In this document: piece by piece, positions 40,801 to 43,800 of the stretch | How the letters are laid out: each line of letters begins with the position of its first letter | Numbering within the stretch: position 1 is the first letter of the stretch | Origin: an uncultured bacterium | GTDB lineage: Bacteria > SAR324 > NAC60-12 | Direction: 5' to 3' | NCBI GenBank assembly: GCA_964010765.1 | Contig: CAXGMD010000013.1 | Coordinates: 1-53,036 of the forward strand | DNA length: 53,036 bases | Position numbers: made by a program

Positions 40801-43800
40801 CGGTGTTGTGGAAGAAGTTGGTAGTGCAGTCAAGGAATTCAAGAAAGGAGACCGGGTTGTTTATGTTGGTGGGACCAGCGCTTATAGTGAAGTCTCCCAG
40901 ATTGCAGCCAACCTGGTGGTTCCCATTCCAGATGACGTAGAAGATGAAGTCGCCGCAGCCTCCATGCTCAAAGGGATGACCGCAGAATACCTGCTACGTC
41001 GTATCGGAAGAGTGCAGGCAGATGATGTGATTCTCTTTCACGCTGCTGCTGGAGGGACTGGACTGATTGCGTGTCAGTGGGCAAAAGCTTTGGGTTGCAC
41101 AGTAATTGGTACGGTCAGTTCACCTGCCAAGGAATCTTTGGCTCGAGACAACGGATGTGACTTCGTGATCAATTATGAGCAAGAAAACTTCTTGGATCAG
41201 GTGATGGAAATCACCAATGGGAAGGGTGTTCGGTTGGTCTATGATTCAGTCGGGCGCGACACTTTCGAGGGGACGATCGGCTGTCTGAGTCCAAGAGGTT
41301 TGTTCGTGAGCTTTGGTCAATCTTCTGGACCAGTGCCTCCAGTGGATCTGCGAGTCTTCAATCCAAAGAGTTTGTTCTACACACGTCCAACACTCTTTTC
41401 CTATGTTGCTACTCGTGCGGAATTGCTCGACAGTTCCCAGGCACTGTTTGGAGCTATCGGTAGTGGGAAGGTCAAGATTTCAATCAATCAACGTTATCCT
41501 TTACGTGAAGTTGCGCAGGCTCACGCTGATCTCGAAGGCCGCAGAACAACAGGATCTACTGTTCTGATTCCCTGACAAAATCTTCATAAAAGCTATGGGT
41601 GCTCATTCGAGAGGAATCCATAGCTTATGCTGCCCGATTGGTGAACTCGACTAGTTCTTCCAAGCGTTGCCAAGCCTTGCCAGAGTCTACCAGTTGGGCT
41701 GCCTGCTCCACACCATCCCTCAGGTTCTCTACCTTTCCTGCGACTACTAGAGCGCCTGCAGCATTGTAAAGAGCAACATGTCGTGGGGTGCCCTGATTTT
41801 TGCCTTGGAGAATCTTTCGGATCATTTGGGCACTCTCTTCTGGACTGTCAATGCGCATCTCTTCCAAATTGCCTTTCGGCAGTCCCACCTCTTCAGGCTC
41901 CAGTTGATACAGTTCGACCTTACCGTCTCGAAGCTCTGCAACATGGGTTTTGGCTGTTGTGGTTAATTCACAGAGACCGTCTGCACCGTGAACCACCAGC
42001 GCGCGCTCTGCACCAAGTTCCGCAAGCACCTGAGCAATTCGAAAAGTCCATTCTACGTTGGGTACACCCACCAGCTGGCGCTGAGCTTGAGCCGGATTGG
42101 TCAATGGTCCAAGAATGTTGAAAACGGTTGGGATTCCTAGCTCTCGACGAATTGGCCCCGCAAATCGCATTGCAGGATGGTGCTTAATCGCATAACAGAA
42201 GCAGAGTTGTAATTCCTGTAGGCAAGCCTCAACTTGCGAAAGATCCAAATCAATATTTACTCCTAGTGCCTGTAAGGCTTCTGCACTACCACTACGTCGC
42301 GTGTTGCTCCGATTTCCGTGCTTGGCCACAACAGCTCCTCCGGCAGCGGCGATCAACGCAGCGCAGGTGGAGATATTGAAGGTACTGATACCATTGCCTC
42401 CGGTACTACAAGTATCAATTGCATCACTTGGAGCCTGGATCTTCTCGGAGCGCTCTCGCATAGCGTGGGCTGCACCGACAATCTCATCAATCGTTGCTCC
42501 TTTGGCCTGGAGCAGGGCAAGTAACGCAGCTGCCTGTGTAGGAAACGCTTCTTCACTCATGACCCAGAGAATCATCTCCCGAGCCTCTTCGCGGCTCAGA
42601 TTCCTTCGTTCAAGCAACTTAGCTAGCAGTTCTTTCATCGACAGGGCTCCGCAAACTCAGGGAAACGGTTGAGGTTTTTTCGGGAAAGTGGTGGGCCCCA
42701 CAGAGAGCCCAACCGGGTTGGGTAATTGTCTTGGAATGGTAGTTAAAACTGGAATTTCAATAACTTCTTCCTCCTGATACTGCAACCACTGCTCGTAGAG
42801 CATGGCTGCTTCGTTCAGGTTGTTTGGATCCTTGCGTTCCAATTGATCCAACATCGAAGGATTCTCGGTCAATAAGAAGTCTTCTTCTACTTCCTGCACC
42901 GTTGACGTTGATGGCTTCTTCGCCGGGACCGTTTCCGGCATCAGCGCCATAATCCGCAGGTTGCGCTTCAACCGTTCCCAAGCTTTGTACAATCCTCTGG
43001 GAATTGCTTGCCAAGGCAACCCATGCGCTAGTCCAAAAGCGGCAACAGTCAGCAATGCAAGACCTCGAAGGATTGGCAGGAAAGGCAGAGCAGTGTAGAT
43101 ACGCACACTCAGGTAGAAACAGACCGCACCAATTACTGCGGCGGCTTCTTGGTGAGGCAGATGCTGCAAGAGCCACTGTGAACCCAATAACCCGAGATAA
43201 CCGTAACTCCAGAGACCTTGAAATGGGACGGTGTTGTGTTCCAGTGTCAACACCAACACATGCAAAATGGAAAGGAGCCAGCAGAGCAACAGGGCATGAT
43301 ACCATCCGCTGAGCAGAGAAAAGCAATGCCAATGTGGTCTGCTCAGGGGGATTAGAAACCAGAACAGTAAGGGAGCCGGTGGGCCAAAGATTTCCAGCAG
43401 CGACCCCCCAATCAGTGCACCTGGCAACCCTAACCAGTTGTGTATTCCCTCCGGTGGTGTCAGTGGGCTAAATACCGTAGGATCGACGAATTCAGCTGTC
43501 GCCAAAGCTACGCCACCGAGCAGCGCCAGTACGAGGAAAAACCAGTCAGATCGCCAACGTAAGCGTGGCGACGCTTCCAAATTGATCGTATCCACTGCGA
43601 AAATCCTTTCCTAACATCCCACCTATCCTAGGTGAGGAATCCACAATTACTTGGCAGGTAGCAGTCCCTGGTTTCTCAGAATCGCATAGATCTGTTCTGC
43701 TACCGGAGGAATGACATAGGAATCAATCCGTTCTCCCAGCAAAGCCACTTCCCTCACCAGCGTGGAACTAACTACAAAAAGATCTGGCCGACCGAACAGG

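Follow-up and report, generated by a model that had tools for sequence, protein, structure and literature searches.

The g00892 locus and its product

The gene g00892 occupies positions 42657–43595 on the minus strand of the window, i.e., the whole 53,036-nucleotide stretch of SAR324 DNA that was analysed, and encodes from a GTG start a 312-residue product that is described here as a stand-alone FtsK N-terminal (4TM) domain protein. Directly upstream, across a gap of 51 nt, lies coaD (43647–44180, minus strand), the product of which resembles phosphopantetheine adenylyltransferase (CTP_transf_like, 58 bits). On the other side, trpD (41625–42638, minus strand), the gene for anthranilate phosphoribosyltransferase (Glycos_transf_3 with 287 bits, together with Glycos_trans_3N), follows 18 nt downstream of the g00892 stop codon, which leaves no space for the remnant or debris of a motor. 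With coaD as its operon partner and trpD as its neighbour, g00892 has no division gene next to it. A coaD homologue was found directly upstream of the 4TM gene at 20 of 29 loci in the phylum: 20 of the 21 loci from the order and none of the eight from families f6 and f7. G020 and G021 show this arrangement too. As judged from gene order, the 4TM gene is part of a conserved coaD operon within the order. Contigs from the RNA libraries of four runs cover g00892 and span both gene junctions. The junction with coaD is bridged by an identical contig and that with trpD by a contig that reaches from 42034 to 42782; in run X1, positions 42783–43055 form a gap in the coverage. This support for g00892 is weak, because a carry-over of DNA into the libraries is possible.

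A Pfam scan of g00892 returned a single family, FtsK_4TM (PF13491). The match scored 19.9 bits with the protein and 21.9 bits in a six-frame search, and it places residues 19–174 (the membrane-domain core, 43074–43541, minus strand) on profile positions 11–165 of 171. The Pfam cut-off for this family is 23.1 bits, and g00892 taken alone stays below it in both searches. Five membrane helices are predicted from hydropathy and the AlphaFold2 model (residues 10–32, 56–81, 87–118, 133–169 and 173–190). The protein length, the number of helices, the six-frame score and the matched part of the profile, all of which had been given in the survey's finding, were reproduced. The AlphaFold2 model has a mean pLDDT of 77.5, with means of 75–97 for blocks of 10 residues across residues 11–170, the exception being 59 for residues 121–130. 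The blocks of residues 11–80 reach 85–96, and the loop between helices 1 and 2 (residues 33–55) is modelled with high confidence. In an alignment of 27 sequences from the phylum, nine residues are invariant, of which D38-P39, N53, G56, G59, G64 and G71 make up an extracytoplasmic loop motif between helices 1 and 2, G132 and G135 being the other two. Thus, g00892 has the membrane-helix bundle with a conserved helix 1–2 loop that is expected of an FtsK_4TM domain. A sequence search of the PDB with g00892 gave chance matches only (E ≥ 0.41), and Foldseek found no match to the model in the PDB at E ≤ 0.001.

The helices are followed by a predicted cytoplasmic tail (residues ~196–312; 42660–43010, minus strand), which was delimited using the alignment and the AlphaFold2 model. 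It is charged, rich in Pro, Gln and Glu and of low complexity, and it resembles a linker. Further helices are predicted within it at residues 200–218, 247–254 and 260–277, the last of which bears a Trp/Tyr-rich motif that is also present near the C-terminus of several orthologues from family f2. Tail length differs greatly across the phylum, the shortest aligned tails having about 20 residues and the longest over 250.

Family assignment and distribution in the phylum

Despite the score of g00892 itself, which lies below the cut-off, the assignment to the family is firm because the orthologues match. PF13491 is matched by all 27 aligned members (E ≤ 0.01, the best being 8e-15) and is the only Pfam family that recurs among them. 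When the profile of the 27 members was compared with the N-domain of a canonical four-domain FtsK using hhalign, the probability was 96% (E 3.7e-9 over 152 columns), and the positions of the loop motif aligned with the same positions in canonical FtsK. The longer relatives of g00892 in the databases are four-domain FtsKs in 12 of 12 cases (38–50 bits). Among 23 relatives of near-equal length, 17 carry PF13491 alone, five have no precomputed family and one is a four-domain FtsK; the nearest ESM-Atlas clusters, 30 out of 30, carry FtsK_4TM only. One relative of near-equal length goes by the NCBI name “DNA translocase FtsK 4TM domain-containing protein”, which could suggest a translocase that is absent. 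These sequence comparisons support the view, already put forward on the basis of the Pfam match, that g00892 and the N-terminal 4TM domain of FtsK are truly homologous.

The distribution of both halves of FtsK was followed in 63 genomes of the SAR324 phylum, each at least 85% complete, 42 of which belong to the order. PF13491 matched in 61 of the 63 and exceeded the cut-off in 53; the frames that bear it are mostly about 210–400 aa long, with a few of up to about 670 aa. The motor domain PF01580 exceeded its cut-off in nine of the 63 genomes in a run in which, as in that for PF01935 (HerA/DUF87), a first-look filter let no more than 38 candidates of any genome through to scoring. Where motors are present in the phylum, they score 140–233 bits. 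Only two genomes of the order and none of the five in the genus of the present genome were positive. The other 40 order genomes, the closed genomes G021 and G005 included, had no PF01580 match over the cut-off, which agrees with the earlier claim that the order is mostly without the motor. PF01935 was found in 18 of the 63 genomes, and six of the 42 in the order had a match.

The first of the two exceptions in the order is a motor of 233 bits in a frame of 1,058 aa, a full-length four-domain FtsK on the 17.2-kb contig C11 of G020. No matching DNA was found for this contig in the closed genome from the same genus, and the IspH gene on it is a second one with a different build. The contig is probably a binning contaminant. 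The same FtsK had been listed in the survey's finding among the matches over the cut-off, and the claim of a motor-less order is strengthened by the probable contaminant origin of the contig. For annotation, it matters that contamination is the best explanation for the sole full-length FtsK of the family. The second exception is a 26-bit PF01580 match in a frame with two stops, and it scores better as DUF87.

Elsewhere in the phylum, the short 4TM protein and a motor occur together. In five out of five genomes of genus g29, it is found beside a separate membrane-anchored FtsK-like protein with alpha and beta domains. The N-domain of the latter is unrelated to 4TM (3.7% probability), and in this genus the canonical N-signature of FtsK is therefore borne by the short protein alone. 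G048 (genus g27) has the short protein beside an alpha+beta frame of 564 aa. The motor frame of G047 has no alpha domain and a DndE-like N-terminus. The coexistence in g29 and G048 means that the 4TM family is not simply what was left over from FtsK everywhere. The earlier description of g00892 as a “reduced” FtsK implies a truncation and is to that extent overstated, since the short protein and the alpha+beta protein coexist in g29.

This coexistence makes it possible that the short protein is an old separate gene. The 4TM-only family would then be an ancient FtsK-N paralogue, possibly with a role outside division, in a lineage that simply lost its true FtsK. We consider this unlikely, although it survives better than the other alternatives, and several observations would fit it besides the coexistence itself: a large score gap separates the short family (145–240 bits) from the canonical FtsKs (38–50 bits), the operon partner is coaD and no division gene, and 141 of the best 150 matches in a library clustered at 50% identity are shorter than 510 aa, which points to a broad family in its own right. 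However, a native canonical FtsK was found beside the short protein in none of the 63 genomes, the only four-domain FtsK being that on the probable contaminant contig. Nor does the paralogue explanation sit well with g29, where the short protein alone carries the canonical N-signature, or with the variable Pro/Gln/charged tail behind the helices, which looks like the remnant of an FtsK linker. In addition, the members share no other recurrent Pfam family.

The search for a DNA-translocating motor

The genome examined comprises 3.86 Mb in 266 contigs and is 92.4% complete. g00892 itself showed no beta motor domain (RecA-like, with Walker A/B) in the Pfam scan. When all 57 PF01580 candidates in this genome were scored, none exceeded the cut-off, and the best match (17.5 bits) falls on an ABC ATPase. 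For PF01935, all 73 candidates were scored, and again none was over the cut-off, in a search that was positive in 14 out of 14 controls; HerA_C (PF05872) was not found in this genome. Six weak PF01580 or PF01935 matches that were scanned as possible motors turned out to be ABC-transporter or type II secretion ATPases. FtsK_gamma (PF09397) reached at best 14.9 bits in this genome against a cut-off of 30.6, and FtsK_alpha (PF17854) gave no match at E ≤ 1. An independent motor HMM was built from eight motors of the phylum and run with default and relaxed filters over the complete set of six-frame ORFs with a length of 40 aa or more (45,643), with a best E of 0.12. The absence of a PF01580 motor from this genome, as claimed earlier, was thereby confirmed with two kinds of model. 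According to the domain searches, alpha, beta and gamma are missing from this genome as well as from almost all of the order, closed genomes included. Without these domains, g00892 has no ATPase and can neither read KOPS nor activate XerD.

Few bacterial domains are as well conserved as the FtsK motor, which stands out by its score in those members of the phylum that have it. That a translocase is present in this genome but was missed, because it lies in unassembled DNA, is too divergent for PF01580 or belongs to an unrelated ATPase family, appears quite improbable in view of this conservation, the scoring of every PF01580 and PF01935 candidate, the result of the independent HMM and the lack of a motor in the genus and in almost all of the order, closed genomes included. 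What speaks for it is the incompleteness of a genome in so many contigs, the restriction of the phylum runs to first-look candidates, the blindness of homology searches to an unrelated pump and the fact that some members of the phylum do have FtsK- or HerA-like ATPases.

Compared with six orthologues, g00892 has a dN/dS of 0.05–0.09 overall, with dS of up to 0.55. The ratio is 0.03–0.07 for the transmembrane region and, within the genus, 0.09–0.15 for the tail. The GTG start is common to six of six close orthologues, and the length is kept as well. Because of the low ratios, g00892 is taken to be functional, and strong purifying selection on the gene is supported at the sequence level. The reading of g00892 as a decaying ftsK remnant (a pseudogene) or a chance ORF, for which its sub-cut-off Pfam score and low-complexity tail might be cited, is ruled out by this selection analysis, as far as sequence tells, and is scarcely credible given the conserved start and length, the nine invariant residues, the confident prediction of the membrane domain and the lack of motor debris before trpD.

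Cell division and proposed dimer resolution without a recognisable pump

This genome encodes ftsA-ftsZ, an FtsL-like protein and FtsI. FtsQ (PF03799) was not found in it with a model that was positive in only five of 14 controls, and the E. coli order of recruitment may therefore not apply. SMC is encoded on contig C9 (33885–37208), where it was located by tblastn; the absence of SMC suggested by a hinge model, which missed five out of five genomes of the genus, was a false negative.

Two Xer-like recombinases had been reported for this genome. One strong member of the XerC/D family is indeed present, with 229.6 bits to the XerD model, but the next Xer-type matches reach only 89, 87 and 60 bits. 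On the XerD, XerC and XerA models, the strong recombinase scores 230, 200 and 144 bits, all below the equivalog cut-offs, and a paralogous pair of XerC and XerD was not found in this genome. A strong Xer recombinase is present in 39 of the 42 order genomes, mostly as one per genome. An Xer activator of the XafT type (DUF3653) stayed below the cut-off, with 17.4 bits at best.

The query for dif was one degenerate proteobacterial consensus of 28 nt. The best match to this canonical site in the genome has four mismatches, which is the chance level for the proteobacterial consensus, and at no more than three mismatches the site was found in none of the 42 order genomes, a search that would miss a divergent dif. 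A de novo search gave 33 palindromes with Xer-like cores, which were then filtered for intergenic position. The most dif-like of these, on contig C233, was rejected because it is present in one of the 42 genomes only, its own. A dif site adjoining the xer gene was rejected as well, as a 6S RNA and an ORF that we take to be zapA-like from reading its sequence occupy the space upstream, and fabF overlaps downstream. GC skew was computed on 49 contigs longer than 25 kb, the change points being too weak to place the terminus.

With one Xer-family recombinase per genome, SAR324 resembles the single-recombinase systems XerS, XerH and archaeal XerA; it differs in that no dif site was found here and that neither side of the xer gene offers space for a neighbouring site. 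XerH requires FtsK, whereas archaeal XerA is independent of it. XerS also requires FtsK, according to excerpts of the published work (PMC2965235).

Since there is no recognisable FtsK pump, chromosome separation must finish in another way. We consider it probable that g00892 is a functional stand-alone FtsK-N with a role in the divisome, in a lineage that has no canonical FtsK and resolves dimers independently of it. Most likely, g00892 would act like the N-terminal ~200 residues of the E. coli protein: it would become part of the FtsZ/FtsA ring, form oligomers and contribute to recruiting or licensing the peptidoglycan machinery that acts late at the septum. Septal DNA pumping and the activation of XerD by FtsK-gamma would be absent. 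The single Xer-like recombinase may resolve dimers at a non-canonical site without FtsK, in the manner of archaeal XerA, and bulk DNA may be cleared by SMC combined with slow growth. A division-only role of g00892 is suggested by analogy with the work on E. coli FtsK-N; we further infer that dimer resolution is FtsK-independent and that the motor was lost, as opposed to never present. More tentatively, the order as a whole, which consists of uncultured, abundant marine bacteria with a free-living habit, may complete its cycle without an FtsK-HerA septal pump, switch on a single Xer at a non-canonical site without FtsK-gamma and use FtsK-N as an autonomous essential divisome protein, a wider statement that is possible but falls somewhat short of probable.

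The closest parallel comes from E. coli. Excerpts of one study report that FtsK residues 1–210 alone localise to midcell and form hexamers, and that cells with this part alone survive, although they filament and are less viable (PMC3870252). g00892 is likewise a membrane domain without a motor and belongs to the same Pfam family, but it has five predicted helices instead of four and a lineage-specific tail. Whereas the E. coli form exists as constructs, the motor-less form of SAR324 is natural, is the sole form in a whole lineage and is under strong purifying selection. With canonical FtsK/SpoIIIE, which consists of 4TM, linker, alpha, beta and gamma, g00892 shares the N-domain and then a variable linker-like stretch, while alpha, beta and gamma are missing from both the protein and the genome. 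SftA of B. subtilis, a soluble FtsK-like translocase without a membrane domain according to excerpts of PMC9320952, is the mirror case. Both are natural splits of the FtsK halves, SftA having the motor only and SAR324 the membrane domain only.

What the survey had presented as new was a Gram-negative, free-living lineage that has no FtsK translocase. As such, this is not new, as cyanobacteria are known to be such a case, and the PF01580 search was likewise negative in the controls Synechococcus and Thermotoga. Synechocystis and Synechococcus elongatus are, like SAR324, free-living diderms that divide with FtsZ and have no canonical FtsK motor; a review of cyanobacterial division gives only relatives of the YjgR/HerA clade for Synechocystis and Synechococcus, with an FtsK homologue only in Anabaena, and describes these YjgR/HerA-clade ATPases as proposed relatives of FtsK (PMC7766704). 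SAR324 goes beyond cyanobacteria in two respects. The Synechococcus control is positive for DUF87, whereas the present genome has no HerA/DUF87-type ATPase over the cut-off, although all the controls were detected. The canonical N-domain is kept in SAR324 as a gene of its own, whereas Synechococcus has no 4TM match at E ≤ 0.01. In the literature searched for the distribution of FtsK, no account of a natural motor-less FtsK was found.

FtsK is usually viewed as a near-universal bacterial link between septum closure and the unlinking of chromosomes. To our knowledge, only engineered strains of model species have so far had its two halves taken apart. SAR324 can be regarded as a natural separation-of-function experiment, in which the membrane half is kept under strong selection, while the pump, the gamma domain, a second Xer and a canonical dif are missing. 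The persistence of the membrane half argues for an autonomous and conserved role of the N-domain, and it raises the concrete question of how Xer is timed without FtsK in a bacterium. If the wider statement on the order is true, the division role of FtsK-N would be separable in nature from DNA pumping, and the timing of dimer resolution to septation would follow a new bacterial route, possibly via the cytoplasmic tail that is conserved in the 4TM protein.

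Identity and probable transcription of the stand-alone FtsK N-domain

The gene g00892 (window 42657–43595, minus strand) starts with GTG, encodes 312 aa and is located between a coaD-like gene upstream (43647–44180, minus strand, 51-nt gap) and trpD downstream (41625–42638, minus strand, 18-nt gap). Its sole Pfam match is FtsK_4TM (PF13491), which scores 19.9 bits (cut-off 23.1) and pairs residues 19–174 with positions 11–165 of the 171-position profile; the six-frame score of 21.9 bits reported by the survey was reproduced. No match was found in NCBIfam. The case that g00892 is a real FtsK N-domain comes through its relatives. 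PF13491 matches occur in 61 of 63 SAR324-phylum genomes, each at least 85% complete, and exceed the cut-off in 53. The match is single in most of them, with a second, weaker one in six, and the frames are mostly ~210–400 aa long, a few reaching ~670 aa. A phmmer search with g00892 matched 29 of these short ORFs (E 9e-32 to 1e-4). In a 27-sequence alignment of the family, nine residues are invariant (D38, P39, N53, G56, G59, G64, G71, G132 and G135); each of the 27 sequences has a PF13491 match at E ≤ 0.01, and PF13491 is the only family to recur. The profile of this alignment matched the N-terminus of a canonical four-domain FtsK with 96% probability (E 3.7e-9, 152 columns), the loop motif being in register between the two.

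Searches of larger collections agree with this assignment. The 12 relatives of greater length in a large protein collection were without exception four-domain FtsKs (38–50 bits). Of the 23 relatives of near length, 22 scored 145–240 bits, 17 of which carry PF13491 alone and five no precomputed family; the remaining one, at 44 bits, was a four-domain FtsK. NCBI names one of the short relatives 'DNA translocase FtsK 4TM domain-containing protein'. The family profile matched 3,344 proteins of a 50%-identity library at E ≤ 1e-3; among the best 150 matches, 141 are shorter than 510 aa, and the first long protein (629–903 aa) appears at ~92 bits. The nearest 30 clusters in the ESM-Atlas all carry FtsK_4TM only.

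Hydropathy and an AlphaFold2 model built with 27 relatives (mean pLDDT 77.5; 85–96 for the blocks covering residues 11–80) predict five membrane helices, at residues 10–32, 56–81, 87–118, 133–169 and 173–190. Residues 33–55 are modelled as a well-ordered loop without helix, and the tail as largely disordered, with predicted helices at 200–218, 247–254 and 260–277. The last of these is a Trp/Tyr-rich amphipathic helix close to the C-terminus, within the stretch of residues ~260–312 (window 42660–42815, minus strand), and may be a docking motif. Look-alikes are found in the C-terminal regions of several orthologues from family f2, whose tails are otherwise unrelated (alignment columns ~585–615); the short-tailed proteins of genus g2 are devoid of it.

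The GTG start and the length of g00892 are conserved in six close orthologues (85–98% identical), one of them belonging to the record 'SAR324 cluster bacterium JCVI-SC AAA005'. Pairwise dN/dS was 0.05–0.09 overall, 0.03–0.07 for residues 1–200 and 0.09–0.15 for the tail, with dS of up to 0.55. A coaD homologue lies directly upstream of the 4TM gene in 20 of 29 phylum loci, comprising 20 of 21 in the order SAR324 (families f1 and f2) and none of eight in f6 and f7; genomes G020 and G021 show the same arrangement. Contigs of four metatranscriptome libraries cover g00892, and in run X1 they span both the coaD/g00892 and the g00892/trpD junctions (records 2 and 4, at most one letter different). 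Since contigs from RNA libraries may include DNA carry-over, transcription is weakly supported. g00892 is a stand-alone FtsK N-domain protein that is conserved, under selection and probably transcribed.

Farther upstream, the mutS frame (window 44199–47351, minus strand, 1,050 aa) is over-extended at its 5' end, where it crosses four tRNA genes on the opposite strand (47075–47431, plus strand; Rfam, 57–70 bits). The true MutS start is probably near an internal Met ahead of the MutS-like N-terminus.

Motor domains across the phylum

The genome carrying g00892 (G000; 3.86 Mb, 266 contigs, 92.4% complete) has no match over cut-off to the motor profile PF01580 (top match 17.5 bits) or to FtsK_gamma, and none to FtsK_alpha at E ≤ 1. 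When all 45,643 six-frame ORFs of 40 aa or longer were searched with an HMM made from eight motor sequences of the phylum, the lowest E value was 0.12. HerA-type ATPases were sought as well: none of the 73 candidates, all scored, exceeded the cut-off for DUF87 (PF01935), for which all 14 control genomes were positive, and HerA_C was not found. Six weak matches to PF01580 or PF01935 were rejected, the scanned frames being ABC-transporter or type II secretion ATPases.

In profile runs across the phylum, with at most 38 first-look candidates scored per genome, PF01580 exceeded the cut-off in nine of 63 phylum genomes and two of 42 order genomes, and DUF87 matched in 18 and six, respectively. At E ≤ 1e-3, 37 of the 42 order genomes, the closed G021 and G005 among them, had no PF01580 match. 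The motor absence claimed by the survey is thereby confirmed for G000, where PF01580, alpha, gamma and the purpose-built HMM gave no significant match, and by PF01580 for most of the order; the motor-less FtsK 4TM protein that the survey described is regarded as real. That g00892 is an FtsK N-domain and that the motor is absent is very probable.

Two order genomes are exceptions. G020 encodes a 1,027-aa four-domain FtsK, the sole canonical one among the 63 genomes, on contig C11 (17.2 kb; locus L075), among housekeeping genes that include thioredoxin, IspH-UbiA, PII and GlnD. This contig has no DNA match in a closed genome of the same genus bar the conserved PII gene (68–73%), and its UbiA-fused IspH is a second copy, the native one lying elsewhere in G020. 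It is therefore probably a binning contaminant; G020 also encodes the standard short 4TM protein next to coaD. The motor of G027 was rejected, being a 26-bit PF01580 match in a two-stop frame with a DUF87 score of 50.6 bits.

Motor frames of ~500–600 aa occur in family f7, in all five genomes of genus g29 and both of g27. In six of the seven, FtsK_alpha and FtsK_SpoIIIE both match, but 4TM and gamma do not at E ≤ 1e-3; the seventh is that of G047. The g29 protein (574–601 aa; L016 1282–3006, minus strand; orthologues in L015 and L017–L019) has alpha and beta without gamma, and an acyltransferase gene adjoins its gene in three of four loci examined. Its 574-aa representative in G053 opens with several hydrophobic helices and then a linker rich in Lys, and has nothing beyond the motor; its N-terminus has no detectable relationship to the 4TM family (3.7% probability). 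Judged from its sequence, it is an unusual gamma-less membrane translocase. The short 4TM gene is also present in g29 genomes, on separate contigs. The G047 motor frame (L020 1272–2780, minus strand) joins an FtsK/SpoIIIE motor to a DndE-like N-terminus (24.9 bits) and lacks alpha; on these grounds it probably belongs to a DNA-modification (phosphorothioation-related) or defence system rather than being a chromosomal FtsK. Two closed f3 genomes, G042 and G043 (2.4 and 1.6 Mb), encode one HerA/DUF87-like protein each (642–775 aa), with no FtsK_4TM match, no motor over cut-off and no strong Xer.

Across the phylum, the canonical FtsK N-signature is carried by the short 4TM protein alone, although some genomes encode a further FtsK-like protein. 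Given this coexistence, the short protein may have arisen by truncation of ftsK at the phylum root or may be an old separate gene.

Xer recombinase, dif and division genes

The survey had noted Xer-like recombinases in G000, and one strong member of the XerC/D family does occur, on contig C53 (19747–20598; 229.6 bits with the XerD model, 199.9 with XerC and 143.7 with archaeal XerA, all below the equivalog cut-offs). Further tyrosine recombinases score 89, 87 and 60 bits at best. A strong Xer (220–267 bits) is found in 39 of 42 order genomes, mostly as a single copy and once per closed genome, in none of five genomes of f3–f6 and in eight of 16 of f7. On C53 (L062 894–2394), xer is preceded by a zapA-like ORF, named from a reading of its sequence, and a 6S RNA (L062 1271–1450; RF00013, 62.9 bits), and overlaps fabF downstream, which leaves no room for an adjacent dif. 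As the TTG start given for xer (L062 1423) falls within the 6S RNA, translation probably begins at a more downstream codon.

A degenerate proteobacterial dif consensus, which would miss a divergent site, gave only chance-level matches in G000 and none at ≤3 mismatches in the 42 order genomes. A de novo search of G000 identified no dif, and no DUF3653 (XafT-like) activator exceeded the cut-off there. G000 combines the lack of an FtsK/HerA pump with one Xer and no canonical dif.

Division genes in G000 include ftsA-ftsZ on C8, encoding a 648-aa FtsZ. A second, short FtsZ (324 aa; Tubulin and FtsZ_C, without the long C-terminal linker) is encoded on C4 (L083 4305–8656, minus strand), upstream of ate, moaC, an FtsL-like gene (20.2 bits, below cut-off) and ftsI. 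FtsQ was not detected with a model so insensitive that only five of 14 controls were positive. SMC lies at C9:33885–37208 (tblastn; 42% identity over 1,106 aa to that of G023). Pfam SMC_hinge has no match in five of five genomes of this genus and scores just 23–49 bits in most order genomes; by this profile the hinge is very divergent in the lineage.

Novelty and proposed function

Lineages without an FtsK motor are already known. In a review of cyanobacterial morphogenesis (PMC7766704), an FtsK homologue is described as identified so far only in Anabaena, and the entries for Synechocystis and Synechococcus are confined to YjgR/HerA-clade proteins. The Synechococcus and Thermotoga controls likewise had no PF01580 match over cut-off, and dif prediction was unsuccessful in five of five cyanobacteria according to a 2011 survey (PMC3025954). 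Neither a natural stand-alone FtsK N-domain, nor the phylum-wide conservation of the SAR324 4TM protein, nor the joint absence of HerA-type ATPases and the FtsK motor was found in the literature searched, in which subscription journals are sparsely covered.

In a study of E. coli FtsK (PMC3870252), residues 1–210 alone localise to midcell and form hexamers, and cells with only this part are viable, but with filamentation and lowered viability. By analogy, the SAR324 4TM protein would be a divisome component; chromosome dimers would then be resolved without FtsK, and the septum would be cleared via SMC and slow growth. A division role for the protein is moderately probable on this comparison. 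Taken as a whole, it is likely that these bacteria have an FtsK N-domain that would serve the divisome without a motor, and that they would resolve chromosome dimers independently of FtsK.
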